From Alphaproteobacteria bacterium (GTDB taxonomy: Bacteria; Pseudomonadota; Alphaproteobacteria; Rs-D84; CACZYB01), in the NCBI GenBank assembly GCA_009785175.1, contig WQWV01000002.1:22749-86748 (forward strand): DNA of 64,000 nucleotides, written 5' to 3'. Below, piece after piece: positions 7,861 through 44,632 of the stretch. The stretch's first letter is position 1. Each line of letters opens with the position of its first letter. Position numbers and translations under genes: made by a program. Below the pieces are notes generated by a model. The model had not been told where the DNA came from, did no database searches, and saw only the letters and a program-made list of their open reading frames with translations.

Positions 7861-7896
7861 GACTGGATTCCGGCTCGGGGCCGGAATGACCATGAC
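7861..7896. repeat. R1 hairpin repeat copy (ACTGGATTCCGG-ctcggg-GCCGGAATGAC variant)
   Basis: member of family ACTGGATWCCGGKTCRAGCCCGGHATGAC found 6 times in window. Confidence 0.8.
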
Positions 7897-7900
7897 ATAA

Positions 7901-8380
7901 CTACTTGCCGGAGTTTTTTCCCTTGAATTTGGAGAGAATAGCCTTGTCGGATTCCTTTTTATCCTTCAATTCTTCCTTTTCACACTTGGCGATGGCTGCG
8001 GCATGTGGCTTTTTGCCATAGCAGATTCTTTTTTCGCCGATAAAAACTCCATCTTCTATTATAAGCAATTTTTCGTTGCCAAGAGATATTTCAAACTTGT
8101 GGAAGCACTCACTATTCTTAGGGTCGCTGATTAGGCGAATATCGGATTTTTTAATGCGTTTGACAATTTCGTCCGAAATTTTCCTGTTCGTTCTGCTATC
8201 GGCATCAAGTTTTAGGGTTTCAAGCCATGATTCACTATCTTCATCGGCATTAAGAATGTCTTCTATCTTGTATGATATTTTTTGCGATGTCCACTTCGCG
8301 AACGGGGAAACCTTGAACCCGACGCGCAATACGTGCATGCCGCCCCTAAAGATGCTTTTAACGCTGTTTCTTATGACCAT
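7901..8380 (-). CDS. hypothetical protein (159 aa), GC-poor, downstream of poly-G promoter
   Basis: ORF with AAAAAGGAGAAAATC-ATG SD; lower GC than neighbours. Confidence 0.5.
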   Translation of the reverse strand: MVIRNSVKSIFRGGMHVLRVGFKVSPFAKWTSQKISYKIEDILNADEDSESWLETLKLDADSRTNRKISDEIVKRIKKSDIRLISDPKNSECFHKFEISLGNEKLLIIEDGVFIGEKRICYGKKPHAAAIAKCEKEELKDKKESDKAILSKFKGKNSGK

Positions 8381-8409
8381 GATTTTCTCCTTTTTGGCTA
8401 TGATTTCCT

Positions 8410-8436
8410 ATTCTACCCCCCCCCGTCGTTTGTCAA
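8410..8436 (-). promoter_or_regulatory. TTGACA-[aacgac+G9]-TAGAAT promoter with homopolymeric G9 tract (C9 on + strand 8416-8424) in 15-nt spacer
   Basis: read on minus strand: cTTGACAaacgacgggggggggTAGAATaggaaatcatagccaaaaaggagaaaatcATG. Confidence 0.55.
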
Positions 8437-8589
8437 GTATTTTAACTATCTGCAGTCGACGGTAGAACTTGTGGGACGAAAATAAAGAGCGGACAATCGC
8501 ACGTCCGGGCAAGCACGAACTTGTGAGTGCCAACGCCCGGGTGGGGCGTGCGTTGGCCGCCTGGCGGCGCGCATACAAATATACGTTAT

Positions 8590-9051
8590 TTAACTATGCG
8601 CCCTTGTAATCGCGATCGCAAGCGCGTCGGCTGAGTGCTCGGAATCGGTTGCGGGTTTGCCAAGCAGCACGCCGACCATCATTTGAATTTGTTCCTTGGT
8701 CGCATGGCCCACACCGGTGATAGATTTTTTCACGAGATTAGGCGAAAATTCCGCGACAGGAATTCCAAACAACGCAGGCACAACAAAAGCCACTCCGCGA
8801 GCCGCGCCAAGTTTCAAAGTCGATTGCGGATTCATGTTCACGAACACGTCTTCTATCGCGGCGGCGGAGGGAGCGAACTTTTCCACAACCTCGCGCAGGC
8901 CGTCGTGTATCAATTTAAGGCGTTCGGACATGGGCGCCTTCTCGGGAACCTTGATCGTCCCGTTTGCGATGTGGACAAGGCTGTTGCCGCGACGCTCTAT
9001 GACTCCCCAGCCGGTGAAGCGAAGGCCGGGATCTATGCCGAGTATTATCAT
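8590..9051 (-). CDS. ruvC: crossover junction endodeoxyribonuclease RuvC
   Basis: 153 aa MIILGIDPGLRFTGWGVIE... with conserved D7, E, D, D catalytic pattern of RuvC. Confidence 0.9.
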   Translation of the reverse strand: MIILGIDPGLRFTGWGVIERRGNSLVHIANGTIKVPEKAPMSERLKLIHDGLREVVEKFAPSAAAIEDVFVNMNPQSTLKLGAARGVAFVVPALFGIPVAEFSPNLVKKSITGVGHATKEQIQMMVGVLLGKPATDSEHSADALAIAITRAHS

Positions 9052-9059
9052 AATATATC

Positions 9060-9150
9060 CTCCGATAAAGCTCCGTTAGGAGCTTGCGCGCACCACGCCG
9101 CCCCCACGCTGTGCGTGCGCGCCCTTCGGGCTCGCCGCCCTGCTCGGCGT
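9060..9150. repeat. R3 structured repeat copy, reverse orientation
   Basis: rc reads ...acgccgagcagggcggcgagcccgaagggcgcgcacgcacagcgtgggggcggcgtggtgcgcgca... Confidence 0.8.
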
Positions 9151-9166
9151 GGTTTGCCCTTTATCA

Positions 9167-10489
9167 TCATGGCGCCAATCTATTCGGGCCGCGGAATAGG
9201 AACTGTGCATCGCGGATCGAATCCAGGTTCAGGAGCTGCTTGGCTATCCTTTGGCCGCCCATGCCCCAACCGCCGTGCGGAGGCATGCCGAAACGGAAGA
9301 AGTTGGCGAACCACTGAAGCCCTTCGAGCTTCAATTTCTTCTCGGCGATCTGGGCCACAAGCTTCTCGTAATTCTCTTCGCGCTGCGCCGTGGTCGCTAT
9401 TTCCACACCCTTATAAAGCAAGTCGGCCGAGATCGAAATCGGCGATACGCCGTCGTCGCTTGAAACTCCCTTCTTGTGATAGAAAGGCCGCGCGCTCCAC
9501 GGGAATTCGGTTATGAACACAAAGTCGGAGCCAAGCTCGGCCGATACGTATTCGCCAATAGCCTTTTCCTCGGCGGTGGTCATATCGCCATCGGCAACAT
9601 CGTGGCCGCGCGATTTTAGGATTTCGCGAGCCTTGTGCATGGTCAGGCGCACCATAGGTTTTTTAAGGCCGATGTCCTTTATGCCCAGGTGCTTTTCGAT
9701 TTCCGCGCCACAGGATTTATCCACCTCGGCAAGCACCGCGGCAAGAGATCCCTCGAGCATATCCATAACGTCGCTGAAAGAATCGATATATCCCATCTCG
9801 GCGTCGTGGCCGATGAACTCGGTCGCGTGGCGAGTGGTGAACGAGTTGTCGGCGCGGAAAACCGAACCGATTTCGAATACCTGCTCGAGCCCGGAGGCGA
9901 TGCCCATCTGCTTAAAGAACTGGGGCGATTGGGCAAGGTATGCCGTCTGGCCGAAATAGTCGAGCGAGAAAAGCTCGGCGTTAGATTCCGACGGAGATGC
10001 CATGAATTTGGGCGTGTGGATTCCTATGAAGCCTTTGGAAATCAGAAATTCGGAATAGCCGCGGTCGATGGCGGAGAGCGCCTTCATTATCGTGGCATCG
10101 CGTTCGCGGCGCAACGTCAAGAAGCGCCAGTCCATGCGCTTTTCGGCGCTGACCTCGTCATCGCCTTTTTCTATTATCGGAATCGGGAGAAGCGGGTCGG
10201 CCGCGGACATGACGTCCAAGCTTTCGATTTGAATCTCGAGCCCTTCCTTGGTGCTTTTGGTTTCGACTACGGCGCCGGTGATTTTGATTACCGATTCCGT
10301 GGCAAGCTCCTTTACGGTTTCGAATGCCGCGTTGTCCTTGCCGATAACGCATTGCACGGTGCCGGTGATGTCGCGCACGATTATGAACGCGACCGAGGAC
10401 TGTTTACGCAAAGTTTGCGCGTGGCCGGCGATGAGGACTTTCTTGCCGATATGGGCGGAAAGTTCGGATAGATGTATTCTGTTTTGCAT
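9167..10489 (-). CDS. class II aminoacyl-tRNA synthetase, archaeal-type aspartate--tRNA ligase / asparagine--tRNA ligase (cannot distinguish)
   Basis: 440 aa; N-terminal OB anticodon-binding domain, class II motifs (…FRADNSFTTRHATEF…, C-terminal GGWGMGGQR motif 3). Confidence 0.8.
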   Translation of the reverse strand: MQNRIHLSELSAHIGKKVLIAGHAQTLRKQSSVAFIIVRDITGTVQCVIGKDNAAFETVKELATESVIKITGAVVETKSTKEGLEIQIESLDVMSAADPLLPIPIIEKGDDEVSAEKRMDWRFLTLRRERDATIMKALSAIDRGYSEFLISKGFIGIHTPKFMASPSESNAELFSLDYFGQTAYLAQSPQFFKQMGIASGLEQVFEIGSVFRADNSFTTRHATEFIGHDAEMGYIDSFSDVMDMLEGSLAAVLAEVDKSCGAEIEKHLGIKDIGLKKPMVRLTMHKAREILKSRGHDVADGDMTTAEEKAIGEYVSAELGSDFVFITEFPWSARPFYHKKGVSSDDGVSPISISADLLYKGVEIATTAQREENYEKLVAQIAEKKLKLEGLQWFANFFRFGMPPHGGWGMGGQRIAKQLLNLDSIRDAQFLFRGPNRLAP

Positions 10490-10772
10490 GTTGGCTCCTT
10501 TGGTTAGTGCAAGGACGCGGAATTGCGTGGTGCCACCTTGCTTCGCTTTGCCGCCGGGGCGGCTCTGCCTCTTTATGTTTACGCCTCGCCATTGTCAGAG
10601 GGTCATGGGCGTTGAGTGGGATTATAGAACGGGGTGGGAAAATTGTCAATAGGGACGACCGATTCGCCGTTTTTCCTATTATTCCGAGCATTATTTTATT
10701 GAAAAAATCAAAATTTATCTCTTTGTATTTACCTATTTTATAAATTATTATTAACTTTTTGATAAAAACATA

Positions 10773-10805
10773 TTGACAATAATATAAATATGATGTTATT
10801 ATCAA
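10773..10805 (+). promoter_or_regulatory. promoter TTGACA-N18-TATTAT overlapping imperfect inverted repeat TTGACAATAA..TTATTATCAA (candidate NrtR operator) upstream of nadM-pncB-pncA
   Basis: seen in very AT-rich segment 10650-10845; IR arms 9/10 complementary. Confidence 0.35.
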
Positions 10806-10845
10806 ATTGTGAACAACAAATAAACCTAACTGAAAGGGTTCAAAA

Positions 10846-11115: not shown

Positions 11116-11117
11116 AA

Positions 11118-11657: not shown

Positions 11658-11674
11658 ACAAAAGGAAAAACAAA

Positions 11675-13168: not shown

Positions 13169-13189
13169 AGAAAGAAAAAGGTGAATATT

Positions 13190-13918: not shown

Positions 13919-13965
13919 CGCGCCAAAACATGGGGAGGATCGTTGGTTTCCTCCCCTGAAATATA

Positions 13966-13993
13966 TTGACAAAAGATATTTTGTGGTTAATAT
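13966..13993 (+). promoter_or_regulatory. promoter TTGACA-N16-TAATAT with palindrome ACAAAAGATATTTTGT (candidate NrtR operator) upstream of nadE-nudix-nrtR
   Basis: 14/16 palindrome overlapping -35/spacer. Confidence 0.35.
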
Positions 13994-14015: not shown

Positions 14016-15467
14016 ATGTTGGATAAAAATAAGATTGTGATCGCCCAGCTTAACCCCATTGTCGGGGACATAAAGGACAATGCACGAAAAATCATAGAAG
14101 CATACCGTGCGGCGGCGGACGGGACGGATTTAATCATCACTCCCGCCGACGCGTTGACCGGCGCGCCGCTTGGCGACCTTGCGGGAAACCAGGATTTTCT
14201 TGTTGAGGTCGAGCGCGAAATGGCGCTTCTTGCAGGCAAGATTGGGAAAGCGCCGATTGTAGTTTCGATAGGCGGCAACATCTATCTTATCCAAAACGGC
14301 AAGGTCGAGATGGGGAACGATTTCGTCCTTGGCAAAACCAATGTCCGTGTCGCGTCGAATGGCACGAACGTGCCCATCTGGAATCCGGGAATCTATATAT
14401 CGCTTGATACTATCCCGTTTAGAATCGGGCGGGCCGAGGAGCGTGAAAAGCTTGCCCGGGACGCGTCAAAAACACAGGACGTGATCTGGGTCAACCGAGT
14501 CGGAGCAGAGGGAGAGCATATCTTCGACGGCGGAAGCTTTGCGATCGCAAAGGGCGGGGAAAAAATCTTCCAGATGCCGCGATGGATAGAGGGCGTGCAA
14601 ACGGTTGTAAAACAAAACTCCCTGCCCGCACAGGAATCCGAAATCTCGGAAATGTATAACGCCGCCGTGCTGGGCCTTAGCGACTACTATGTCAAGAACG
14701 GCTTCTTCAAGGGCGTGCTTTTGGGAATGTCGGGCGGGCTTGATTCCGCGCTTGTGTTCGCAATCGCCGCAGCCGCAATCGGTGCGAAGGCCGTGCGTCC
14801 CGTCGCAATGCCGTCAAAATACACGACGGGGGCAAGCAACTCCTTAGCGGAGGAAATGTGCAAGAACTATGGCGTGGAATTACAGGTCGAACCGATAGAG
14901 CACATGGTCGAACCTTTCCGTAAAACGCTTGATCCGAAACGCAGTATCACCGACGAGAACCTTCAGGCGCGCGTGCGCGGAATGCTTTTGATGGGAATAT
15001 CGAACGAGGAGGATCGGCTTTTGCTTTCCACATCGAACAAATCCGAAGTTGCGGTCGGCTATGGCACGCTTTACGGCGACATGTGCGGCGGATACAACCC
15101 CATCAAGGACATCTATAAAACCGATGCCTTCGAAATGTGCCGGCATATAAACAAGCAGGCCGGTCGCGAGATGATACCCGCCGAAATAATCAACCGCGCG
15201 CCGTCGGCGGAACTTAGCGCAGGGCAGAAGGACAGCGACTCGCTTCCGCCGTATCCCGTGCTTGACCATATAATAAAATCGCTTGTCGAGGACGGGTTGC
15301 CGGTCGATAAGATAGACGCAGACCGAGCCACTGTCCTTAGGGTCGCAAAAATGATCCAAAATGCCGAGTTCAAGCGGAGCCAAGCTTGTATCGGGCCCTC
15401 TATTTCCAAACGAGCGTTCGCCGATACCAACATGCCTGTGTTAAATAAATTCGAGAGGCAGAGATGA
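14016..15467 (+). CDS. nadE: glutamine-dependent NAD+ synthetase (N-terminal nitrilase/CN-hydrolase domain + NAD synthetase domain)
   Basis: C-terminal domain has SGGLDS PP-loop; N-terminal carbon-nitrogen hydrolase domain; 483 aa from ATG 14016. Confidence 0.85.
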   Translation: MLDKNKIVIAQLNPIVGDIKDNARKIIEAYRAAADGTDLIITPADALTGAPLGDLAGNQDFLVEVEREMALLAGKIGKAPIVVSIGGNIYLIQNGKVEMGNDFVLGKTNVRVASNGTNVPIWNPGIYISLDTIPFRIGRAEEREKLARDASKTQDVIWVNRVGAEGEHIFDGGSFAIAKGGEKIFQMPRWIEGVQTVVKQNSLPAQESEISEMYNAAVLGLSDYYVKNGFFKGVLLGMSGGLDSALVFAIAAAAIGAKAVRPVAMPSKYTTGASNSLAEEMCKNYGVELQVEPIEHMVEPFRKTLDPKRSITDENLQARVRGMLLMGISNEEDRLLLSTSNKSEVAVGYGTLYGDMCGGYNPIKDIYKTDAFEMCRHINKQAGREMIPAEIINRAPSAELSAGQKDSDSLPPYPVLDHIIKSLVEDGLPVDKIDADRATVLRVAKMIQNAEFKRSQACIGPSISKRAFADTNMPVLNKFERQR

Positions 15468-19270: not shown

Positions 19271-19300
19271 GACTGGATACCGGTTCAAGCCCGGCATGAC
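19271..19300. repeat. R1 hairpin repeat copy (GACTGGATACCGGTTCAAGCCCGGCATGAC)
   Basis: family member. Confidence 0.8.
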
Positions 19301-19347: not shown

Positions 19348-20127
19348 ATGTTCGATAAAATCGCCGCAATAGGCCGCCTTGGAATAAACTTCGTCCGCGA
19401 GATCTACGACGTCATAGTATTCGCCGTGCGCGCAGTCATAAACATGTTCACGCCGCCGTTTTACCCGCGCGCCCTGATAACAAACATGGTCGAGATAGGA
19501 TTTTTTTCGCTTCCCGTAGTCGCGCTTACCGCATTGTTCGCAGGAATGGTGCTTGCCATGCAAAGCTATTCCGGGTTCGCGGAATTTTCCGCCGACGGAG
19601 GAGCGGTCGCGATGGTTGTCGTAATCGCAATCACGCGAGAGCTCGGCCCCGTCTTCGCCGGCCTTATGGTAGCGGGACGAATTGGCGCGACACAGGCCGC
19701 CTCAATCGGCACAATGCGCGTATCCGAACAGATCGACGCGCTTAAAACCCTTTCGACAAGCCCGTTCAAATATTTGGTTTCGCCCCGCATACTCGCCGGC
19801 GTGCTTACCATGCCGTTTTTGGTCTTCATCGCGAACGTGATCGGGATTTTCGGGGGATTTTTGGCTGCCGTATTCACGCTCAACCTAAACCCGTTCGTAT
19901 ACATAAAGGAAACGTATGAGGCGCTTACTTTCTATGACGTCTATGTGGGATTGGTCAAGGCGGCCGTATTCGGATTCATCATCACGCTTATGGGTTGCTA
20001 TTTCGGATACAACGCAAAGGGCGGAGCCGAGGGCGTAGGCAAGGCCACCACAAACGCCGTCGTCATGAGCTCGATCTTGATATTGATCCTTAACTATGTC
20101 CTTACCGCGATATTCTTCGAGGGCTAG
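19348..20127 (+). CDS. mlaE: phospholipid ABC transporter permease MlaE (YrbE family)
   Basis: 259 aa, 5-6 TM, strong family pattern …ITRELGPVFAGLMVAGRIGA…TLSTSPFKYLVSPRILAG…. Confidence 0.8.
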   Translation: MFDKIAAIGRLGINFVREIYDVIVFAVRAVINMFTPPFYPRALITNMVEIGFFSLPVVALTALFAGMVLAMQSYSGFAEFSADGGAVAMVVVIAITRELGPVFAGLMVAGRIGATQAASIGTMRVSEQIDALKTLSTSPFKYLVSPRILAGVLTMPFLVFIANVIGIFGGFLAAVFTLNLNPFVYIKETYEALTFYDVYVGLVKAAVFGFIITLMGCYFGYNAKGGAEGVGKATTNAVVMSSILILILNYVLTAIFFEG

Positions 20128-22704: not shown

Positions 22705-23002
22705 TCCCCGCCTCGAACTTGGGATTGATCGGAATGTCGAAAACGGATATTATATCGCGCGCAGTGATCGCCTTGAAATCGGAAAGTCTCGCATCGGAAA
22801 GTTGACGCACGCGCGTAATCGAAAGAAGCGATATGATCTCGGCGCGCACCACGCGGATTTCGGTTTCCGCCCCGGCTATATCACGCTCGACGCCCGCGAT
22901 CTCTTTGTTCAAAAGGTTCGCGCGGTATTGCAAAATCGCGGAGGTTATCACAAGCATCATCGAGCTTGCGATACATACGCCATATACGGTCGATTTCTTC
23001 AT
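22697..23002 (-). CDS. ftsL: cell division protein FtsL
   Basis: 101 aa bitopic coiled-coil protein between rsmH and ftsI. Confidence 0.65.
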   Translation of the reverse strand: MKKSTVYGVCIASSMMLVITSAILQYRANLLNKEIAGVERDIAGAETEIRVVRAEIISLLSITRVRQLSDARLSDFKAITARDIISVFDIPINPKFEAGNE

Positions 23003-24961: not shown

Positions 24962-25236
24962 GGGGGAGTTTCAAATCATAAACCCAAATCTTATGCAACG
25001 GGCGGATAAGCCAGGCACGAAGTGCCGCAGCGAATCAGGGCCCCGTTGTAGAAGATTTATGCTTTTCGCGCTTTGCGCGAGGGGGGGGGCGCCCTGCGGG
25101 CTTGGAAAGCCTATGGTTTGATTTGCCTTAAAACTCTCCGCCCGGGGAGTTTTGGCGGCGACCCGCCTTCGCATAGCTCCGGCGAGGCAGGGGCTAGTGT
25201 TGGCGCACTCGCGGGGGAAGTTTCATTATACGTTGC

Positions 25237-25711: not shown

Positions 25712-25800
25712 TAACTGTCAATGACAAAGTTTGACGTCGAATGCCATTTCTTGACATCATAAAATAAATTGAAATATTTGAAGCTTTTTACTTGACATGC
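25712..25800. promoter_or_regulatory. mraZ upstream region with repeated (T)TGACA/GTCAA motifs incl. palindrome TGTCAATGACA and -35/-10 (TTGACA-N17-TAGGAT) ending 6 nt before mraZ ATG
   Basis: minus-strand reading: GTCAA…GTCAA…GTCAttGACAgttaaagatatggggacTAGGATagaaccATG. Confidence 0.35.
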
Positions 25801-25883
25801 GAATCGGGGTTTGCAAGAATGGCATCGAGGCAACAAAATCCACCTTCGTGCCTGGCGATGGCGGACTAAAGAGAGGAGAAACC

Positions 25884-26240
25884 ATGGAAACCAAAAACAA
25901 GACTGTCCTTATGACCGTCATCGACGATATCCTTGGCGACATAATGTGGGCCGAAAGGAACGGCATGCTTATATCGCTTAAAGAGGCTATCGCGCGTTCC
26001 ATAGCGGGAGGATCGAACGGCAACATCGAGGCGCTTAGCCGCGACGAGCTGATCGGAGCATACACAGCTTTCCAAATCCGCAAGCAGCAGTTCACCAACA
26101 ACACCAAGGAAATGACCAACGCGAAGATCGCCGAGTGCCTTAAGCTCTTCATCTTCGACACCGCGCGCGAGCAGATGGCGGCGCTTGAGGAATCGGTTTC
26201 GGTGGACTCCGCGATCGAGAAGAAGTTCAAGGTTGCTTAA
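25884..26240 (+). CDS. hypothetical protein (118 aa), divergent from mraZ
   Basis: AGAGGAGAAACC-ATG. Confidence 0.5.
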   Translation: METKNKTVLMTVIDDILGDIMWAERNGMLISLKEAIARSIAGGSNGNIEALSRDELIGAYTAFQIRKQQFTNNTKEMTNAKIAECLKLFIFDTAREQMAALEESVSVDSAIEKKFKVA

Positions 26241-26250
26241 TCATTAGCCT

Positions 26251-26550
26251 AAATCTCCCCTTGTGGACAGCTGGACGAGGCAACGCCGAAGTGCCAGCAA
26301 GGTTCCATAAGGGGAGATTTGTGTTCAAGCGGCAAAGCCGCGCCTGCCCCCTTTAATAACAATGGTTTAATTTGCCCAAAAAAGCCAAGAGCAGTTGGCT
26401 TTTGTTAGGCGATGCTTGCATGGGCTCGCGGGGAATTTTTTCTATTGTCATTCCGGCCACCGGGCCGGAATCTAAGCCGACTGGATACCGGGTCGAGCCC
26501 GGTATGACAAGAGATTAAATCCCCCTTGGTGGTGCCTTGGGGGATTTTTG
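26251..26550. repeat. composite intergenic repeat block: R2 element (26251-26320), GCCAA hairpin/terminator (26385-26410), tandem hairpins incl. R1 copy (26449-26508), R2-mini hairpin (26515-26550)
   Basis: each sub-element has copies elsewhere in window. Confidence 0.8.
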
Positions 26551-26566: not shown

Positions 26567-26929
26567 CTAGCGCTGAAAGCTTGTATAATAGGCGACGGGT
26601 TTGCGGTTATGGGTATGATAGCCTACAGCAAGGCGGCATACTTCGCCACGAAAAGGATCCTTGTGCTCGGCCTTCAATATATTCTTATCGGCAAGGCATT
26701 TGGTCATGATCGTATTATATAAAAACTGGCCTTCTTTTTCCTTGTCGGTGAATATGTGTCCGTCAACCCAGACCAAGTAATGTCCGGTGCGGCGTTCGAT
26801 ATATGCTCTTGTCCTATCCAAGGAATTAAGAATAGAGTAATTGCCATTCACTATTGCAAACTTGACGCGATTGTATTGGATATCTTTGAGCAGATCACTT
26901 ATTTGGGGTTGTCCGTAAACTTCGGTCAT
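26567..26929 (-). CDS. hypothetical protein (120 aa) downstream of poly-G promoter
   Basis: AGGAG 8 nt upstream of ATG 26929; longer ORF start 26968 would lie in the promoter. Confidence 0.5.
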   Translation of the reverse strand: MTEVYGQPQISDLLKDIQYNRVKFAIVNGNYSILNSLDRTRAYIERRTGHYLVWVDGHIFTDKEKEGQFLYNTIMTKCLADKNILKAEHKDPFRGEVCRLAVGYHTHNRKPVAYYTSFQR

Positions 26930-26964
26930 ATTAAAAACTCCTTTGGTTTTTGTTATTAATAGAC

Positions 26965-26994
26965 ACAATACCCCCCCCCGGAAGATTTTGTCAA
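26965..26994 (-). promoter_or_regulatory. TTGACA-[aaatcttcc+G9]-TATTGT promoter with G9 tract (C9 on + strand 26971-26979) in 18-nt spacer
   Basis: same architecture as 8410-8436 and 32971-33000. Confidence 0.5.
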
Positions 26995-27013
26995 GTGGAA
27001 ACTTAGGGATATT

Positions 27014-27901
27014 TTATGCTTGGCGGACCTTGATTTGCGCGCTTAGCGCGGCGCGGTATTTGTCGTTCGGGGAATCCATATAGAAATGTGTCCAGGAATG
27101 AAACGAGTAATCGCGGATTTTATCTATATCAAGCCTTAGGCCGGAGAGTTTTTCATAGCGGGCGACGATTTTACTTAATGTATCGAAGCCATAGTGCAGC
27201 CCGATCTGGCTGAAATCCTGGTGTATATCGCCTATGCCGGCGTCGCCGAAGTCATAGATTCCCTCGATCTTGCCCTTCTTGAAATCGAACGCTATATTTT
27301 TCGGCATGATGTCGAAATGCGAGAAACGCACTATGGCATTCTCGTTGGCGAGTATAAACTTTTTATAGAAAGATTTAAGGAAGGCGCGGTCGGAGGCGCT
27401 TAATTTTTTATCGGCGGCGGTGCGCGCTATGATCTCGGCCGGTTTCGGATAGCGCTCGAACCTATCCCAATACGGAATATACACATTATTGAAAACTTCG
27501 TCCGTCATCGAATGCAGGCCGAAAACGAAGGCCGCTATGTCGTCGCAGAATTTTTGCCGTTTGGCGGGAGGGAGGGCGTCAAGCCCGGCCTGAAAAATAA
27601 AATTTCCGGGAATCTTCTTGTGCCAGGAATAAGTGTATTCACCCTCTTGGATTTTGGAATTCGGAATCGGAAGGCTTGTTTTACCGTGAAGGAACCGCAG
27701 AAGCGCATTATCCTGCTTGAATTCATGCACGATATTTTTGCGCTGGGGAAATTTGACTATTATATCGTCGTTGATGGCAAAGGCGAAAGTGCCCTTGGCC
27801 TTGGGACAAGGAAGCGATAGGGATTTTATGGCGAAATCGCGCGACAGCAAATCAGTCATAAAATGCAAATCATACGCCTGGTGCCGGGAAAGTATTTTCA
27901 T
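27014..27901 (-). CDS. aminoglycoside phosphotransferase (APH)/choline-kinase family protein kinase-like enzyme
   Basis: Brenner motif HFDIMPKN and DFGDAG. Confidence 0.65.
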   Translation of the reverse strand: MKILSRHQAYDLHFMTDLLSRDFAIKSLSLPCPKAKGTFAFAINDDIIVKFPQRKNIVHEFKQDNALLRFLHGKTSLPIPNSKIQEGEYTYSWHKKIPGNFIFQAGLDALPPAKRQKFCDDIAAFVFGLHSMTDEVFNNVYIPYWDRFERYPKPAEIIARTAADKKLSASDRAFLKSFYKKFILANENAIVRFSHFDIMPKNIAFDFKKGKIEGIYDFGDAGIGDIHQDFSQIGLHYGFDTLSKIVARYEKLSGLRLDIDKIRDYSFHSWTHFYMDSPNDKYRAALSAQIKVRQA

Positions 27902-32572: not shown

Positions 32573-32690
32573 AGCGAAGCCACAGCCGCCAGCAGGGCGA
32601 AAGAGCAGTATTGCGCGCACCCCTGCGTGGGGTGGCGGTTGTGCGCGCAGCGAGGCGAGCTCGCTGGAAAGTCAATGTATAAACGTGAAA
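32573..32690. repeat. R3 structured repeat copy (hairpin GCGCGCAC/GTGCGCGC, loop CCCTGCGTGGGGTGGCGGTT) + conserved 3' arm GAGCTCGCTGGAAAG
   Basis: 3' arm also shared with copy at 4486-4520. Confidence 0.8.
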
Positions 32691-32872
32691 ATGCCCCGGC
32701 CAAGGAGGAGAGAGAGAATAAGGAGGGAATGGCCGGGGCTACTATGTCATACCGAAATGAGGGGTCGTCCCGGTTAAACACAGACCTGCTGAAAAGCAGA
32801 TAGCACTATTTTAGACAGGATTTACATTATTTGTCAACCGATTTCTTAAAATATTATTTTGTCAAGGTATAA

Positions 32873-32893
32873 TATCCTGTATTTACAGGGATA
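32873..32893 (+). promoter_or_regulatory. inverted repeat TATCCTGTA-tt-TACAGGGATA (candidate operator) ~80 bp upstream of poly-G promoter
   Basis: 9/10 complementary arms. Confidence 0.3.
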
Positions 32894-32970
32894 ATTTATA
32901 TATAAAATTCCTATGGGCGCGCTTTTGCGAATCGGTATATAGACCTTTGGCGGGATAGAATGCTTTATGC

Positions 32971-33000
32971 TTGACAAAATCCTGTGGGGGGGGGTAGATT
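32971..33000 (+). promoter_or_regulatory. TTGACA-[aaatcctgt+G9]-TAGATT promoter with G9 tract (32986-32994) in 18-nt spacer, driving the 33032-34666 operon
   Basis: -35 32971-32976, -10 32995-33000, AAGGA SD then ATG 33032. Confidence 0.55.
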
Positions 33001-34669: not shown

Positions 34670-35164
34670 TCAAGACGTCCTTGAGACCTTCATCAACCGC
34701 TGCTTCTCGCGTTTCCATTCGCGTTCCTTGATCGTCGCGCGTTTATCGAAATTCTGTTTGCCGGTGGCGATGGCTATGAGGAGTTTCGCTTTGCCGCGGT
34801 CGTTGAAATAAAGGCGCAGCGGGATTATTGTAGAACCTTTCGCGGAAAATGCTCCGGCGATTTTTTCGATTTCCTTTTGTTTCATCAAAAGGCGACGCGG
34901 GCGTTTTTCAGTGCGGGCGGCGAAGGGGCTTTCGGCCTCGAACTTGCCGATGGTGATATTGTTTATAACAAGACCCTTGGCGTCCGGGCTTACGTATCCG
35001 TCGGCGATATTCGCGCGGCCAAGGCGGAGCGATTTGACTTCGCCACCCGTGAGGCTTAGGCCTGCTTCAAACGTTTCGCCGATGGCGTAGTTAAACCTGG
35101 CGCGGCGGTTTTCGGCAACCACGCCCGTCGAGATGAATTTCTGTTTTACTTCTTTTTTGCTCAT
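34670..35164 (-). CDS. smpB: SsrA-binding protein SmpB
   Basis: 164 aa; …RARFNYAIGETFEAGLSLTGGEVKSLR… SmpB signature. Confidence 0.9.
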   Translation of the reverse strand: MSKKEVKQKFISTGVVAENRRARFNYAIGETFEAGLSLTGGEVKSLRLGRANIADGYVSPDAKGLVINNITIGKFEAESPFAARTEKRPRRLLMKQKEIEKIAGAFSAKGSTIIPLRLYFNDRGKAKLLIAIATGKQNFDKRATIKEREWKREKQRLMKVSRTS

Positions 35165-36012
35165 TTTTCATTACCCCTACTGGATTCCGGGTCAAGCCCG
35201 GAATGACGAAAGGAGAGCCCCAAATCATACATCTCATTTTTATTAAGTCCAAATAAATCCGCGGCGGTGCTTGCGGCTTCCTTTAGCGGCAACGATTTAA
35301 GCAAGCGTTTCATTATCTTTGCGGCGTCCACGTTGTCGGCGGTCTTTTCCGCTGGCGCGATGAGGCCAACTATTTCGCCCTTCGGCGATTTGAAGTGCGC
35401 GGCGAGGTCGGAGGCGGTGCCGGACTGAACCTCCTCGTAGAGTTTCGTCATCTCGCGCGCGATTGTTATTTGCCGGTCGGGCATGATTTCCGCGATTGCT
35501 TTTAATGTAAGCGGCAGGCGAACGGCGGATTCGAAAAATATCACCGTGGCGTCGAGGTTGCTGTGCCGCTCAAAAAATTCCTTGCGCGCCTTGGCTTTTT
35601 CCGGGACAAAGCCTGCGAACAAGAAACAATCGCTTGGAAGGCCCGAGAGCACCAGCGCGTTGATGGCCGAGCATGCGCCGGGAACGGACGTGATGAAAAC
35701 TCCCTTGCGGCGCAATTCGCGCACAAGTTTGAATCCGGGATCGGAGATCAGCGGCGTGCCGGCGTCGCTTATCAACCCTATCCTTTTGCCGGAGGCTATA
35801 AGTCCCGCGATTTCGGCCGTCTTGCCCGCCTCGTTATGATCGTGCAAACTTATCAACTTGGATTTAATCCCAAGGTGGGAGAGAAGCTTGCCCGCAACGC
35901 GCGTATCCTCGGCCGCGATAAAATCCATGGCGCCAAGCGTTTCCACCGCCCGGCTTGAGATATCGCCAAGGTTGCCGATCGGCGTCGCAACTATGTAAAG
36001 TCCAGCTTGCAA
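35161..36012 (-). CDS. rsmI: 16S rRNA 2'-O-ribose C1402 methyltransferase RsmI (tetrapyrrole methylase fold); C-terminal ~15 aa are encoded by an R1 repeat
   Basis: LYIVATPIGNLGDIS…AEDTR N-terminus typical of RsmI; divergent from lpoA as in E. coli yraL/yraM. Confidence 0.85.
   Translation of the reverse strand: MQAGLYIVATPIGNLGDISSRAVETLGAMDFIAAEDTRVAGKLLSHLGIKSKLISLHDHNEAGKTAEIAGLIASGKRIGLISDAGTPLISDPGFKLVRELRRKGVFITSVPGACSAINALVLSGLPSDCFLFAGFVPEKAKARKEFFERHSNLDATVIFFESAVRLPLTLKAIAEIMPDRQITIAREMTKLYEEVQSGTASDLAAHFKSPKGEIVGLIAPAEKTADNVDAAKIMKRLLKSLPLKEAASTAADLFGLNKNEMYDLGLSFRHSGLDPESSRGNEK
35179..35207. repeat. R1 hairpin repeat copy inside 3' end of rsmI ORF
   Basis: ACTGGATTCCGGGTCAAGCCCGGAATGAC. 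Confidence 0.8.
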
Positions 36013-37478: not shown

Positions 37479-37502
37479 AAATTCTTAATCAAGCATAACC
37501 CC

Positions 37503-37790
37503 AAATCTATACCTATGGACAGCTCGAGGCAACGAGAGCGAGGTTCCATGGGAATAGATTTGTAGCTACGCGCAAAGCGCTCCCTCCCCCCCCATTTTTT
37601 TGATAACACAGGTTTAATCTGTCTCAAACAAAACATCGACGTAGCGATACTCGCATCACGTCCTAGCGCCACTACGCCGGCAGGGCGGAAGCGCCAATGG
37701 CGCGCAGCTCTTCGAGCTGGAGAACACAATGTATAAAAAGATTTGTGCGTAGGCGGAACGCCAAGAGCAGTTGGCCTTTGTGAGGCGGCG
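37503..37790. repeat. composite mosaic repeat, second copy (R2 core, C8/T7 tract, R3 fragment, identical 57-mer at 37700-37756, GCCAA hairpin)
   Basis: see 3404-3590. Confidence 0.85.
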
Positions 37791-39168: not shown

Positions 39169-39406
39169 TTCTTTCTCCTGGAATATTTTATCCTTTATAG
39201 AGTGCGAGGTCAAGTATATATCCTTCTTCTGCTCGCTTGCGAGCGCGCACATGCGAGCGTCGCCTCACAAAGGCTCCGGTGGAGCGTTTGGAGGCAAATT
39301 AAACTATATGTTTTCGCCCGCGCGCGCCGAAGGCGCTTATACACAAATCTGATATAGCGGAGGCCTGGCTCTCCTTCGTCGAGCTGTCCGCTATATCAGA
39401 TTTGGG

Positions 39407-39435
39407 GTTATACTTCACTGGATACCGGGTCAAGC
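39407..39435. repeat. R1 hairpin repeat copy (ACTGGATACCGGGTCAAGCCCGGTATGAC)
   Basis: canonical copy, perfect 8-bp stem. Confidence 0.85.
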
Positions 39436-39463
39436 CCGGTATGACGAGGGAGCGGGCGGCAGG

Positions 39464-40753
39464 TCAAGTCGCTTTCTTTTTCCTAAGCTCGGTCCAATGA
39501 TCAATGCGTTTTTTAAGTTCCGCCTCGTAGCCTTTGCCGTTCGGTTTATAATATTCGCGGCGGGCAAGGCCGTCCGGAAAATAATTCTGGCCCGAGAATC
39601 CGTCCTTGGTATCAGGATCGTATTCATATCCTTTGCCGTATCCCAAATCCTTCATCATCTTGGTCGGTGCGTTAAGGATATGAGCGGGAGGAGCAAGCGA
39701 GCCGGTGGATTTCGCGTCGGCAAGCGCCTTGCCAAACGCGGCATAGGAAGCATTCGATTTCGGCGCGGTGGCCATATAGATCACCAACTGCGCGACTACC
39801 AAATCCCCCTCGGGAGAGCCCATGCGTTCGTATGCCTGCCACGACGCAATCGCGCGCGTCAACGCCGCGGGTTCGGCAAGGCCTATGTCCTCGACACTCA
39901 TGCGCGTCAAGCGACGCAAGAGGTATTTCATATCCTCGCCGCCGGCTATCATACGCGAAACCCAATAGAGCGCCGCGTCGGGGTCGGAGCCGCGAACTGC
40001 CTTGTGGAGGGCTGAAATCAGATTATAGTGCGCGTCGCCCCCCTTGTCATAATTCGGAAAACGCGTTTGTGCAAGCTTGGCGAGGCCGGCCTTGTCCAGC
40101 GTCTTGCCCTTGGAAAAATCATAGACGTATTCGATAAGATTTAGGAGGTAGCGCCCGTCGCCGTCGGCCATGTTGACAAGCGCGTCGGTCGCGTCGGCGT
40201 CAAGCGGAAGCGGTTTTCCCATTTCGGTCGTCGCGCGGACTAGCAAGCGTTTCAACGCTTCGGGCGAGAGGCGTTTAAGCACCACCACCTGTGCGCGGGA
40301 AAGCAACGCGGAGTTAAGCTCGAAACTCGGGTTTTCCGTGGTCGCGCCGATAAGCGTTATCGTGCCGTCCTCGACATAGGGCAAAAAGCTGTCCTGCTGC
40401 GCTTTGTTAAACCTATGGATTTCATCGACGAAGAGAATCGTGCGGCGGCCGGCAAGGCGGCGATCCGCTGCTTCGGCGAATATTTTTTTCAATTCCGCGA
40501 CGCCGGTGAAGACTGCGGAGGCGGAAACAAATTCCGCGTCGGCGTATTTGGCGACAAGTTTCGCAATCGTAGTCTTGCCGCAACCGGGAGGGCCCCAAAG
40601 AACCATAGACTTGACGTTCCCGCTTTCAAGCATGTTCGTTATGACGCCGTTATCGCCAAGGATTTCCTCTTGCCCGACAACATCGGAGAGCGAGCCCGCG
40701 CGGAGGCGTTCGGCAAGCGGTGTTCCGATTTTCGTGGCAAAGAGTTCAGGCAT
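39464..40753 (-). CDS. rarA: replication-associated recombination protein A (AAA+ ATPase RarA/MgsA)
   Basis: Walker A GPPGCGKTT, Walker B, MgsA C-terminal domain. Confidence 0.9.
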   Translation of the reverse strand: MPELFATKIGTPLAERLRAGSLSDVVGQEEILGDNGVITNMLESGNVKSMVLWGPPGCGKTTIAKLVAKYADAEFVSASAVFTGVAELKKIFAEAADRRLAGRRTILFVDEIHRFNKAQQDSFLPYVEDGTITLIGATTENPSFELNSALLSRAQVVVLKRLSPEALKRLLVRATTEMGKPLPLDADATDALVNMADGDGRYLLNLIEYVYDFSKGKTLDKAGLAKLAQTRFPNYDKGGDAHYNLISALHKAVRGSDPDAALYWVSRMIAGGEDMKYLLRRLTRMSVEDIGLAEPAALTRAIASWQAYERMGSPEGDLVVAQLVIYMATAPKSNASYAAFGKALADAKSTGSLAPPAHILNAPTKMMKDLGYGKGYEYDPDTKDGFSGQNYFPDGLARREYYKPNGKGYEAELKKRIDHWTELRKKKAT

Positions 40754-40756
40754 CTG

Positions 40757-41929
40757 CTACTCCCCTTCCGTGTCCGAAAACGCCGTTGGAATAGCAAGCT
40801 CGTTATTAGTTTTCGCGCCAAGCTTTTTTATTTCCGTGGCAAGAAATTCAACTCCGCCACGACCCGAGAGCGGCACCACCGCTTTGTCAAACGCGGTGCG
40901 AGCGGTGGTAAGAGCGTTCCTTAGCGTGCCGAGGTGTTCTAGGTGCGTGTTGATTTTATCGTAAAGGTCGCCGGCGCGGGCGGCGATTTTGCCTGCGTTC
41001 TCGTTCCGCTTTTCGATATCCCAAAGGTTCTTTATCGTGCGGAGAATCGGAAGCAGCGATGACGGAGTGGCCACCATAACGTTGCGGCTGGCGGCATAGG
41101 CATAAATCTCGGGGTCGGCCTCGAGCGCGGCGAGGTAGGAGGCCTCGAACGGCATGAACATCACAACGAAGTCAAGCGCGTTCGCCTTCATATACTTATG
41201 ATATTCCTGGGTCGAAAGATCGTCTATGTGCCGCTTGACCGCGGCGGTGTGCGATTTGAGTTGTTTTTTCGCCTCGTCGGGGTCGGTGGCTTTGCGATAT
41301 TCCGCATAGTTCACCGTGTTGACCTTTGAATCAATAACCAATCCGGAGTCCTTTTTCAAATATATAAAGCAGTCGGGACGGCGGTTGTTGCCGGAATCGT
41401 CCTTGAAGTTCGCCTGTAGGAAATAATCCTGACCCTTCGCGTATCCCGAAAGGTCGAGTATTTCCTCGAGTATATCCTCGCCGCGGTCGCCGGCCGATTT
41501 AGGATTGCTGAGGATTTTCGAGAGGTCGGAAACGTTCCTGGCCATCTGCTCGGATAATATCTTGAAATACTCGCGGCCTTTGCCGGTTTCGAGTTTATCG
41601 GATTCCACCATTTTTTTGAAGGTTTCAAGTTGGTCGGAGAAGGGCTTCATCTGGGCGTCGATATTGGTTTTATGCTCGTTTACAAACGCACGGCGTTGAA
41701 GCTCGAGCGCGTCCTTGGAAAGTCCGGCGAACACTTCTTTGAAATTTTCCGCCGAAGTCAATTTCGTTTCGGCGGCGATAGCGCGGGCGTTCGAATCCTT
41801 CGCTTCGAGCTGCGCTGTGGCCAACATGGATTTAAGCGTGTCGGTATCCGTGTTAGCCGGCGTTTTCAAAATTACCTTGGCCGCAAGGAATCCAAGCCCT
41901 GCGCCAATGGCGAAAATCAATATTTCCAT
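40757..41929 (-). CDS. rmuC: DNA recombination protein RmuC
   Basis: N-terminal TM + long coiled coil + RmuC C-terminal domain (…FVVMFMPFEASY…). Confidence 0.8.
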   Translation of the reverse strand: MEILIFAIGAGLGFLAAKVILKTPANTDTDTLKSMLATAQLEAKDSNARAIAAETKLTSAENFKEVFAGLSKDALELQRRAFVNEHKTNIDAQMKPFSDQLETFKKMVESDKLETGKGREYFKILSEQMARNVSDLSKILSNPKSAGDRGEDILEEILDLSGYAKGQDYFLQANFKDDSGNNRRPDCFIYLKKDSGLVIDSKVNTVNYAEYRKATDPDEAKKQLKSHTAAVKRHIDDLSTQEYHKYMKANALDFVVMFMPFEASYLAALEADPEIYAYAASRNVMVATPSSLLPILRTIKNLWDIEKRNENAGKIAARAGDLYDKINTHLEHLGTLRNALTTARTAFDKAVVPLSGRGGVEFLATEIKKLGAKTNNELAIPTAFSDTEGE

Positions 41930-41976
41930 TTACAAATTCCCTTAACTCCGCTAATATTATAACAACGGAAACAAAA

Positions 41977-42510
41977 ATGGAACCAAAAAAATTACAGCTG
42001 GTAATCGAGCCGGACGAGAGGCTTCATAAAAAATCCCTCCCGTTCGATTTCGCGACTATGAACGCGCGCGCGCTTGCGATCGCCATGGCAAACGTCATGG
42101 CCCTGCACGAGGGCATAGGACTTGCCGCGCCGCAAGTCGGACTGCCGCTTCGCTTGGTTATAATAGACGAGGCGACGGTCGCAGAATACGACAAGGCGGA
42201 CACGCCCGACGAGCCGCTTTTCGTCATGATAAATCCGCGCGTGCTTTGCCTTAGCGACAAGGAGGTCGAGGCCGAGGAGGGATGCCTATCCCTTCCGAAA
42301 ATGTTCGCCGACGTCGTGCGACCCGAGAGCATTGAAATAGAATATCACGACATAAACGGGAACGTTTGCCGACGCAAGGCTTCGGGCACCATGGCGCGGT
42401 GCATCCAGCACGAACTCGACCACCTTGAGGGCAAGTTGTTCATCGACCACCTTAGCCCCTTAAAGCGCTCTATGATACGAAGTAAGTTGAGAAAGCCCAG
42501 GAAAGAATAA
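41977..42510 (+). CDS. def: peptide deformylase
   Basis: GIGLAAPQVG, EGCLS, HELDHL motifs. Confidence 0.9.
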   Translation: MEPKKLQLVIEPDERLHKKSLPFDFATMNARALAIAMANVMALHEGIGLAAPQVGLPLRLVIIDEATVAEYDKADTPDEPLFVMINPRVLCLSDKEVEAEEGCLSLPKMFADVVRPESIEIEYHDINGNVCRRKASGTMARCIQHELDHLEGKLFIDHLSPLKRSMIRSKLRKPRKE

Positions 42511-43712
42511 TGTTCAAATCCGCGGCGACAAAGTTGAGAAAATCGGCCGGGGGAAAGTGGCTGCCTATCGTGCTTTTCGCACTTGGGACACGGCTTGTGC
42601 TTGCCTCGGAATCGCCTACGTTCGTGGACGAGGACGCGCTTGCGGCGCAGCTTAAAGCCCCGATGAAAAACGTCGCCGTGGCGTCGGCGAAATCCATCGA
42701 AATCCGCATGAGTATGCAGCGCGATGATATGGTTGCGGCGGCGGATACTGTGAAAGCAGCGCTTGAGCGAATGAAGACCTCCGCCCCTTGGGCTATCGAA
42801 TTCATACGCGACAACAATATGCGCTTTATGGTTTCCCTCGGAGGGGACGGCGACGGCATACCCGGCGCAGGAAGCTTCTCGCCAAACCGGCCGGACGAGA
42901 TACAGATAACGCCCCTTATGACCTTCTTGTCCGACGAGAACGGGGAACTCGACTTCTCGAAAAAAAGATATACCAAGGTGGAGGAGATGGAAAACACCAT
43001 TATCCACGAGCTTATCTACGCATGGCAATATCGAAATTTGATGAATGCCGGAATAAATAATCTAGTAAACAAGATGGATCTTGAACAAAAGATCCTTTAC
43101 CTATTCTTCCTTGAATACGACGCCGTGGGAAAAACACAGATAGCCACCGGCGGCGAACACACTGTGCGCGAAGGCAATATCAGCCGAATGTGGGGTATAT
43201 ATTACATCGACCAACACATGAATCCCTCCGCTTATTCAAACGCGGACTTCGCCAAATTCGACAGCCTTTATACCGCGATACGCGCCGATGTCGAAATGAA
43301 CCTTGGCACCGGAATATCGGACGAGGAATTCAAAAAAGTGATAAGGGCGACTTTGGCTACTGGCTCGGCGGACATGGCGCACAGGGATTTTACGGATTCG
43401 GAAATAGACGAGATGAGGCGACGTTTCCTTGCGGGATTAAAGCCGGAGCAAAGGACGGCCTTGAGATACCTTGACATGAACGCGGTCATATTGGACAGGC
43501 AAGACGTGCTGCTTGATAAACGGAAGGATTTGTTGGGACAGGCCGAAAAATTATCAAAGAAAAGAAATATGACTAACAAAGGGAAGATTGCGAATCAACA
43601 GAAAATAAACAGCGCAATGGAAAAACACGACGAATATAAAAACACCTATAAACGGTTGGAATGCGTTTCCCAAGAGTTCGACGAGTATGCAAAAAGGAAA
43701 ACAAGACGATGA
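42510..43712 (+). CDS. hypothetical secreted protein (400 aa) inserted between def and fmt
   Basis: signal peptide; no recognisable domain; translationally coupled on both sides. Confidence 0.5.
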   Translation: MFKSAATKLRKSAGGKWLPIVLFALGTRLVLASESPTFVDEDALAAQLKAPMKNVAVASAKSIEIRMSMQRDDMVAAADTVKAALERMKTSAPWAIEFIRDNNMRFMVSLGGDGDGIPGAGSFSPNRPDEIQITPLMTFLSDENGELDFSKKRYTKVEEMENTIIHELIYAWQYRNLMNAGINNLVNKMDLEQKILYLFFLEYDAVGKTQIATGGEHTVREGNISRMWGIYYIDQHMNPSAYSNADFAKFDSLYTAIRADVEMNLGTGISDEEFKKVIRATLATGSADMAHRDFTDSEIDEMRRRFLAGLKPEQRTALRYLDMNAVILDRQDVLLDKRKDLLGQAEKLSKKRNMTNKGKIANQQKINSAMEKHDEYKNTYKRLECVSQEFDEYAKRKTRR

Positions 43713-44632
43713 CCAAACTTCGCGCGATATTCATGGGCACGCCCGAGTTCGTGATTGGCTCGTTGGAATTGGTCGCGGCGGAATGCGAGCTTGTCGGCGT
43801 GTTCACAAAGGCGCCTGCACCCGTCGGACGCAAGCAGATTTTGACCCCCTCGCCGGTGGCGGTGTGGGCGGAGGCGAATGCGGCCGGCGTGCCGGTCATC
43901 ACTCCTCGTTCGCTTAGAAAGCAGCCGGAATTCGTTGAGGAGGTTCGGTCGCTCAAACCCGACATAATCATCGTGTTTGCGTATGGTTTGATTTTGCCGC
44001 AAAGTGTCCTTGATATCGCGCCGTGCGTTTGCGTGCACCCGTCCGCCCTGCCCCTTTACCGAGGAATGAATCCTATCGGCCGCGCGATTTGGAACGGTGA
44101 TTCTTTCACCGAGGTCGACCTGATCGCGATGGATGCCGGAGTAGATACGGGTGCGGTTTTGCTGCGTCGGCGGATTGAATTGAATCCTTCGATTACGCGC
44201 GGCGCGCTTGAGGAAATTGTTGCGGCGGAATCGGTTTCTGCCTTGCGCAAATACTTGGCTGCGCCGGCCGATTTTCCGCCCGTGGCGCAAGAAGGCGAGG
44301 CGTCGATGGCGGCCGCGTTTAGCGCGGAGGAATTGGCGATCGATTTTTCGCTTCCGGCGCGTGCGGTGTTGGCGCGAATCAACGCCCTGCTCCCGACCCC
44401 CGCGGGATATTTCGTCGCGAACGGAGAGAAGATAAAAATACACTCCGCCGTCATTCCGGCGAACGCCGGAATCCAGTCTATATATAAAAACTGGATACCG
44501 GGTCAAGCCCGGTATGACAACGGACGATTGTTCATAATGTGTAGCGATGATGTAATAGAAATCCTTCGGGCCCAGCGTCCGGGCGGAAAGATTTTGGCGG
44601 CGCGAGATTTCCTAAACGGGTTCAAGATATGA
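43709..44632 (+). CDS. fmt: methionyl-tRNA formyltransferase; carries in-frame R1 repeat insertion (codons for …KNWIPGQARYDNG…)
   Basis: N-terminal formyltransferase domain (HPSALPLYRG), C-terminal Fmt domain; R1 at 44490-44518. Confidence 0.85.
   Translation: MTKLRAIFMGTPEFVIGSLELVAAECELVGVFTKAPAPVGRKQILTPSPVAVWAEANAAGVPVITPRSLRKQPEFVEEVRSLKPDIIIVFAYGLILPQSVLDIAPCVCVHPSALPLYRGMNPIGRAIWNGDSFTEVDLIAMDAGVDTGAVLLRRRIELNPSITRGALEEIVAAESVSALRKYLAAPADFPPVAQEGEASMAAAFSAEELAIDFSLPARAVLARINALLPTPAGYFVANGEKIKIHSAVIPANAGIQSIYKNWIPGQARYDNGRLFIMCSDDVIEILRAQRPGGKILAARDFLNGFKI
44490..44518. repeat. R1 hairpin repeat copy inside fmt coding sequence, in frame
   Basis: ACTGGATACCGGGTCAAGCCCGGTATGAC. Confidence 0.85.

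Follow-up and report, generated by a model that had tools for sequence, protein, structure and literature searches.

The CGTC REPs described by Di Nocera, De Gregorio and Rocco (2013, BMC Genomics 14:522; PMC3733652) are defined by a CGTC or TGTC tag, a stem of 8-9 bp that starts with AT, a loop of 4-5 nt and a CCA tail. Their dimers are mostly head-to-head and often made of unlike units, Alphaproteobacteria predominate among the carriers, and the repeats lie mostly in intergenic space, close to gene 3' ends and between convergent or co-directional genes, with no transposase at their flanks (PMC3733652). Copies inside genes encode peptides such as VIPAKAGI, WIPAFAGMT and WIPAFTGMT, with one dimer residing in isoleucyl-tRNA synthetase, and the family takes in named elements, since Neisseria dRS3 and Rickettsia RPE-6 belong to CGTC-1 and Rickettsia RPE-4 to CGTC-4 (PMC3733652). 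In 2013 these repeats still lacked a known enzyme. Chenal et al. (2025, Nat Commun 16:2388; PMC11893778) reported that SsnA binds the Neisseria NTS and cleaves it; this GIY-YIG nuclease is a single domain of 94 residues, of the cd10448 type, accepts only single-stranded DNA and only the tagged strand, and does not act on RNA. Cleavage is governed by the three bases 5' of the palindrome and binding by the C directly 3' of it; the cut falls a few nucleotides upstream of the hairpin, in Neisseria and in Wolbachia, and Ssn homologues are widespread, with ssn genes often flanked by hairpins like a miniature insertion sequence (PMC11893778). Here we analyze a hairpin repeat, R1, in a 64,000-nt stretch (the window; positions 22,749 to 86,748 of contig WQWV01000002.1, assembly GCA_009785175.1) of a metagenome-assembled genome labelled Alphaproteobacteria bacterium. 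An earlier reading of the letters alone, the sequence-only reading, had pointed to six R1 copies, two of them in frame inside the genes fmt and rsmI. We find that R1 and its inverted partners are CGTC-tagged REPs, also called NTS or SRM type, because tag, stem, loop, tail, dimers and positions all fit the published definition. They probably have an Ssn-type nuclease as their partner, with the copies in genes being tolerated accidents. The sequence-only reading had overlooked the prior description of the family and of its in-frame copies as well as the Ssn nuclease family.

Searching the window with the R1 pattern, with 100 dinucleotide shuffles as control, gave six matches and no more, at 7862, 19272, 26480, 35179, 39417 and 44490, every one of them on the + strand and the one at 7862 being reached only with three mismatches; the shuffles gave none. 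All six copies claimed before are hence real, two with exact starts and three with starts off by 1, while the copy placed at 39407 belongs at 39417. The contig was then extended beyond the window through ENA contigs identical to it, to 78.2 kb of readable sequence in total, and scanned by a looser search plus a structure-aware hairpin scan with 20 shuffles as control. The structural scan found nine units in the window and four further ones in the right-hand 6.8 kb beyond it on the same contig, and none in the left-hand 7.4 kb, which makes 13 tagged hairpins per 78.2 kb versus at most one in each of the 20 shuffles. The earlier census was thus incomplete, having passed over the unit at 4524-4552 and two units on the opposite strand. 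The nine units of the window are given below, with the strand being the one that reads YGTC-stem-loop-stem-CCA; this is opposite to the strand used in the sequence-only reading.

4524-4552, minus strand: single unit, 9-bp-stem variant, a GTC ATACTGCGA CTTGA TCGCAGTAT CCA gt
7862-7890, minus strand: single unit, g GTC ATTCCGGC CCCGA GCCGGAAT CCA gt
19272-19300, minus strand: decayed single unit with stem mismatches (ATGCCGG...CCGGTAT), from pattern and structural scan
26447-26474, plus strand: partner unit with a 4-nt loop, t GTC ATTCCGGCC ACCG GGCCGGAAT CTA, left half of a dimer
26480-26508, minus strand: R1 unit, t GTC ATACCGGG CTCGA CCCGGTAT CCA gt, right half of this intergenic dimer
35179-35207, minus strand: R1 unit within the 3' end of rsmI, from pattern search and translation of the open reading frame (ORF)
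39417-39445, minus strand: R1 unit, 18 nt 3' of the stop of an MgsA/RarA-type AAA ATPase gene (39464-40753, minus strand)
44450-44477, plus strand: partner unit with a 4-nt loop within fmt, c GTC ATTCCGGC GAAC GCCGGAAT CCA gt
44490-44518, minus strand: R1 unit within fmt, right half of an intragenic head-to-head heterodimer

The units share one plan, a YGTC tag, a stem of 8-9 bp starting with AT, a loop of 4-6 nt and a CCAGT tail, measure 27-31 nt and occur either singly or as a head-to-head heterodimer. In the structural scan the GTC tag is present in 12 of the 13 units, with C or T 5' of it in 10, and the 8-9 bp stem with AT as its first two positions likewise in 12, the exception being the unit at 19272, scored as a 7-bp stem with one mismatch; perfect stems are seen in 11. 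Loops have 4 nt in two units and 5 nt in seven (4-5 nt in 9/13), and the remaining loops are those of three 6-nt units outside the window and of one decayed unit. The tail reads CCA in 12 units, usually followed by GT, and CTA in one, and the base directly 3' of the palindrome is C in every unit (13/13). Each dimer (26447-26508 and 44450-44518) is made of one unit with a 4-nt loop and one with a 5-nt loop, tags pointing outward; each partner unit (26447-26474, 44450-44477) stands on the opposite strand at 5-12 nt from one R1 copy. By RNA folding, seven of eight tested sequences adopt the predicted structure: five of six single units at -12 to -15 kcal/mol (-15.4 kcal/mol for the 7862 unit), the intergenic dimer at -34.4 kcal/mol (z = -4.2) and the fmt dimer at -33.6 kcal/mol (z = -5.8), and in the dimer folds tag pairs with tag and tail with tail. 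The family hairpin did not form in the folding of the 19272 unit, with a fold z-score of -0.84. Compensatory stem variants, which had already been proposed from the letters, are all present in the window (ATACCGGG/CCCGGTAT, ATTCCGGG/CCCGGAAT and ATTCCGGC/GCCGGAAT), and covariation holds in a sample of 140 units among the genome matches listed (search described below), where stem pair 3 is complementary in 139 and stem pair 8, which occurs as each of the four pair types, is Watson-Crick in 138. No target-site duplications are evident in the unit flanks, and Rfam returned only two tRNAs for the window, with nothing at the repeats.

Could these units be chance palindromes or an assembly artefact? 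Shuffled sequence leads us to expect none by chance. Across the rsmI unit the window is matched at 100% identity by ENA and Logan assemblies. NCBI, JGI and ENA all list the exact Fmt protein, and the same repeat sequence is present in isolate genomes, e.g., of Dyella and Dokdonella soli. We therefore count this explanation as refuted.

Of the 13 units, ten are in intergenic space and three in genes, with two of the latter in fmt and one in rsmI. The 4524 unit lies 15 nt 3' of the stop codon of a minus-strand gene (4568-5245), and the 7862 unit is placed between convergent genes, 8 nt past the stop of 7134-7853 (+, B3_4 domain, Pfam) and 10 nt past the stop of 7901-8380 (minus). The 19272 unit lies between two + strand genes, with mlaE (19348-20127, Pfam) starting 47 nt downstream, while the intergenic 26447-26508 dimer has the + strand gene 25797-26240 on its left and minus-strand ORFs on its right (26567-26968, of low coding score, and an APH-family gene at 27014-27901). 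Three units (4524, 7862 and 39417) are thus found 8-18 nt past a stop codon, and these, together with the stable RNA stems (-12 to -15 kcal/mol), their covariation and the view of Di Nocera et al., who favour transcription of many REPs (PMC3733652), would suit host-selected RNA elements, i.e., mRNA 3'-end stabilizers or attenuators kept gene by gene and without any nuclease. However, orientation is mixed relative to transcription (three units sense, five antisense, one convergent), and we see no bias elsewhere either, as far as crude gene calls tell. Moreover, U-tracts are absent, copies lie inside ORFs, and the conserved tag and tail are outside the stem, with no obvious role in RNA, while they are exactly the determinants of Ssn, an enzyme family whose member SsnA is inactive on RNA (PMC11893778). 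We consider such an RNA role unlikely.

The two genes that carry copies in frame are:

43709-44632, plus strand: fmt, methionyl-tRNA formyltransferase, 307 aa, identical to NCBI MCL2439125.1
35161-36012, minus strand: rsmI, 16S rRNA 2'-O-methyltransferase, assigned by Pfam and by alignment to E. coli RsmI

Across the repeats the fmt ORF stays open, and one Formyl_trans_C match (Pfam) covers them. Residues 248-270 of Fmt are encoded by the dimer and read VIPANAGIQ-SIYKN-WIPGQARYD, where the 44450 unit gives VIPANAGIQ (residues 248-256) and the 44490 unit, read on the + strand, gives WIPGQARYD (residues 262-270); the extra peptide seen before, KNWIPGQARYDNG, is present in the ORF. The dimer falls in a hairpin that joins two strands of the C-terminal beta-barrel. 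Overall the protein is no longer than its relatives. Between these flanking strands the window Fmt has 28 residues, where 89 of 120 homologues have 23 and the nearest one has about 20; the nearest other Fmt shares 48% identity. Judged from this alignment, the 69-nt dimer replaces a native hairpin of variable length, the segment gaining only 5-8 residues net, and is not a clean addition. The sequence-only reading was therefore right about the intact frame and the peptide, while its single extra insertion gives way to a two-unit dimer standing in for a variable hairpin. The repeat-encoded residues are absent from all 119 other Fmt homologues, in agreement with the repeat-derived origin that it had put forward. 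An AlphaFold model of the window Fmt has a pLDDT of 94.7 overall and of 73 at residues 251-260, and it superposes on solved Fmt structures (TM 0.89 to 2FMT). In this model the repeat-encoded residues 267-270 (ARYD) are a beta-strand and not a dangling loop, and they are thus predicted to form part of the C-terminal barrel; as ordinary Fmt sequences made up the alignment behind the model, this strand placement is a prediction and no proof of function.

The rsmI ORF ends with ...YDLGLSFRHSGLDPESSRGNEK and a stop codon, and the 35179 unit is read as RHSGLDPESS, which provides 10 of the 17 residues of the tail SFRHSGLDPESSRGNEK (residues 267-283). Pfam places the end of the RsmI_C domain at about residue 267 of 283, and the alignment to E. 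coli RsmI stops at residue 266, with the last four residues of the E. coli chain left unaligned. By these comparisons the copy adds a C-terminal tail beyond the last domain, which bears out the earlier proposal that the 35179 copy supplies the end of RsmI. The rsmI stop overlaps the ATG of smpB (34670-35164) as ATGA at 35161-35164, which places the repeat inside a tightly coupled gene pair. R1 lacks stop codons in four of its six reading frames, and its survival in frame is therefore not surprising.

Beyond this contig, we used a generic form of the hairpin on a species-representative genome collection, which gave at least 120 loci, and an R1-specific pattern on metagenomes, which gave at least 107 loci; the metagenome loci listed are from other organisms, and none of them overlaps the window. 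The genome loci listed belong to Gamma-, Beta-, Alpha- and Deltaproteobacteria, Chloroflexota, Nitrospirae, Armatimonadota, Binatia, Aminicenantes, Saccharibacteria and others, cultured Dyella and Dokdonella included. The exact R1 core with a CTTGA loop is found in at least seven of these groups, and the identical hairpin (29-mer) occurs in Binatia, Nitrospirae, Armatimonadota, Thermodesulfobacteriota and several Betaproteobacteria, which adds further phyla to the five given for CGTC repeats in 2013. Several of the 13 units agree in 29 of 29 positions with one another and with copies from other phyla. Elsewhere, too, the exact hairpin is often head-to-head with a 4-nt-loop unit, which is the same pairing as in the window. 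The base 5' of GTC was left free in both searches and is nevertheless mostly a pyrimidine: C in 109 and T in 27 of the 140 genome units listed, C in 50 and T in 39 of the 89 metagenome units listed. Head-to-tail R1 arrays with a period of 44-47 nt and one constant spacer were seen on two contigs (L193, 1-330; L088, ~5490-5660). As CRISPR arrays these were rejected, since a single identical spacer throughout means tandem repeats. A further R1-bearing metagenome contig (L157, 2147-2273) also has a member of a different repeat family of the window (2297-2418 and 24978-25064), with 74-81% identity, and may come from a related organism. One Logan contig (L122) terminates exactly on the last base of the rsmI unit (window 35207), and many metagenome contigs (among L123-L229) begin or end ~100 nt or less from an R1 copy; short-read assembly appears to break at the hairpin.

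What might act on these hairpins? The Neisseria NTS CGTCATTCCCGCGMAVGCGGGAATCYRG and NTSvar CGTCATACTCGGGNNNNNCCCGAGTATC have the tag, stem start and tail of R1, and the asymmetric positions conserved in R1 are those that determine cleavage and binding by Ssn. A cassette on one metagenome contig (L146, Ga0193742_1000129) points in the same direction. There, a single-domain GIY-YIG gene of 95 aa (5515-5799; PF01541, E = 1.4e-16), which surfaced only after the ORF length cut-off had been lowered, is flanked by two units (5484-5510 and 5806-5832) with outward tags, 8-bp stems and 5-nt loops, and an exact R1 copy lies 3 kb away. Going by its layout, this cassette looks like the arrangement described for ssn, here for an R1-type hairpin. 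We propose that the R1 units are Ssn-type target hairpins that would be recognized by an Ssn-type enzyme encoded elsewhere in the genome. Ssn itself, or DNA repair after cleavage, would account for the spread of the units and for the maintenance of their sequence, and the gene-internal copies would be accidents that were tolerated because of where they fell, the dimer in a length-variable beta-hairpin of Fmt and the single unit after the last domain of RsmI. We hold this combination of CGTC-REP/NTS-SRM hairpins, Ssn-type partner and tolerated gene copies to be probable, while spread and maintenance through Ssn is a step that we infer. It predicts that the genome of this uncultured, repeat-rich alphaproteobacterium encodes an Ssn-type single-strand nuclease.

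Several observations weigh against this proposal. Only two of the 13 units (4523-4553 and 44449-44476) match the published SRM pattern HGTCWYN(0-2)YYVSBRHN(0-5)WNVSBRGN(0-2)RNCYNB exactly, with ~0.5 expected by chance in 78 kb, and three more lie within one substitution, a level at which chance gives ~10 matches. The 8-bp stem of R1 and its loop starting in C fall just outside this pattern, most units being one or two positions off. The readable 78 kb contain no GIY-YIG ORF, motif or Pfam match, and so the cognate Ssn is assumed. The cassette just described is the single clear case of flanking among the ~230 loci listed, and its enzyme is known by the PF01541 match. For hairpins of this type, transposition has yet to be demonstrated, and we found no empty site; the mobility which the sequence-only reading had attached to R1 is inferred. 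Clustering of 2027 neighbouring ORFs of at least 100 aa from the 120 genome loci listed gave only generic families (ABC ATPases, response regulators, SDRs). The lack of an enzyme gene in the 78 kb, this lack of an enriched neighbour and the decay of the 19272 unit would also be expected if the units were inert fossils whose enzyme is extinct in the lineage, which is the "going toward extinction" scenario of Di Nocera. Such a history is improbable in our view: 11 of the 13 stems are perfect and several units are identical over 29/29 positions, also across phyla, and this argues for recent spread or ongoing constraint.

The orientation of the units deserves separate mention. All nine single units in the 78 kb have their tagged strand on the minus strand of the window (two-sided p ~0.004), and the dimers are arranged alike. 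The statement that the family has one orientation therefore holds for the units with 5-6-nt loops and for all nine single units, and it fails for the family as a whole owing to the two inverted partners. The + strand is G-rich almost throughout the window and the YGTC strand is the C-rich strand, the presumed leading-strand template, so that the presumed lagging-strand template exposes the strand that Ssn does not cut. One may speculate, with little confidence, that the co-orientation is a strand asymmetry linked to replication, either as avoidance of self-cleavage at forks or as the footprint of spread via single-stranded DNA; neither idea has been reported before for this repeat family. Among the loci listed, orientation showed no signal relative to local GC skew (27 vs 30 in genomes, 21 vs 18 in metagenomes), and skew combined with gene-strand bias gave 11 vs 8 and 3 vs 11. 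Neighbouring single units are co-oriented 17:1 in the genome loci but 2:9 in the metagenome loci, again among those listed, and the former ratio may reflect larger duplications. If strict co-orientation were general, it would offer a simple genomic test of the interplay between hairpins and replication.

The genome is unusually rich in intergenic repeats of other kinds. A second, unrelated palindromic family (GCGCGCAC...CGTGGGGGCGGCG...TGCGCGC) is found at 3480-3517, 9085-9122, 46737-46771, 61465-61539, 32577-32651 and 4432-4478, the first two copies being 100% complementary over 38 nt. A palindromic element of ~90 nt (..AAGTATAACCCCAAATC..GGACAGCTCGAGGCAACGAGAGC..) lies at 3388-3474, 37486-37572 and 39330-39415, and on a further contig (L232) at 14540-14640; through the common string GTGAAGTATAAC it adjoins the tail of the CGTC unit at 39417 and of another at window-equivalent 64633, and together the two form mosaic intergenic repeats like those described in Neisseria. 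We also noted an exact 57-nt direct duplicate (3511-3567 and 37700-37756, with fragments at 37603-37628 and 37757-37785), a 55-nt inverted repeat with 87% complementarity (2252-2306 and 26351-26405) and a promoter-like string, TTGACAAAATATTATAATAT, that recurs intergenically at 5293-5334, 32844-32878, 59722-59756, 26969-26995 and 32970-32996. Gene calling splits the anaerobic ribonucleotide reductase NrdD into two ORFs, 61862-63883 and 63952-64146 (the latter running over the window end), both PF13597, and three CGTC units are clustered just downstream of them (window-equivalent 64208-64660).

In summary, the closest relatives of R1 are the CGTC-1 and CGTC-2 REPs, with which it has tag, stem, loop and tail in common. 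Head-to-head dimers of unlike units, as in both window dimers, prevalence in Alphaproteobacteria, positions near 3' ends, occasional in-frame copies and the lack of an adjacent transposase are likewise features of both. The differences are three units with 6-nt loops, a host that is an uncultured alphaproteobacterial metagenome-assembled genome, and the co-orientation of all single units, a property that is not discussed for CGTC REPs (PMC3733652). The share of units inside genes, 3/13, compares with 2% reported for N. meningitidis (PMC11893778). The window peptides match the type of the intragenic CGTC-REP peptides VIPAKAGI and WIPAFAGMT; a literature search for the window peptides themselves gave no match. 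The genes fmt and rsmI are not named as hosts in the part of the supplementary text of PMC3733652 that was available to us. The in-frame copies are hence a new example of a documented phenomenon, by which fmt and rsmI join the housekeeping genes known to hold such hairpins in frame.

The comparison with Rickettsia palindromic elements, which the sequence-only reading had drawn, proved apt, as RPE-4 and RPE-6 are classed as CGTC-4 and CGTC-1 REPs of the same superfamily and are, like R1, short palindromes read in frame inside conserved proteins. The RPE-4 peptides VIPWLDHGI and DTVVKPRYD (PMC3733652), read from opposite strands, can be back-translated to one DNA, GTCATACCGTGGCTTGACCACGGTATC, which would be R1 plus one stem base pair; this likeness comes from back-translation. 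The classic RPE-1, of 100-150 bp, is unrelated to R1, and coding copies are a minority here (3/13 units), unlike the case described for R. conorii. The GTAG REPs and REPINs, which are linked to RAYT, also resemble R1 as short tagged hairpins with inverted dimers; both kinds act at the level of single-stranded DNA and both can flank the gene of their own enzyme. This shared architecture would be explained if the units were classical GTAG-type REPs mobilized by RAYT, an IS200/IS605-like Y1 transposase. We regard this as very improbable: the tag is YGTC and not GTAG, no transposase-like family is enriched near the hairpins in the 120 genome loci listed, and no tyrosine transposase gene flanked by CGTC repeats was found in the published survey (PMC3733652). 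The two systems differ in tag and in enzyme family, the GTAG REPs with a GTAG tag and an HUH Y1 transposase, the R1 type with a YGTC tag and a probable GIY-YIG nuclease. Set against these known systems, what is modestly new in R1 are the two host genes, the stand-in within the Fmt barrel, the breadth of phyla that carry the identical sequence, and the strict co-orientation of its single units.

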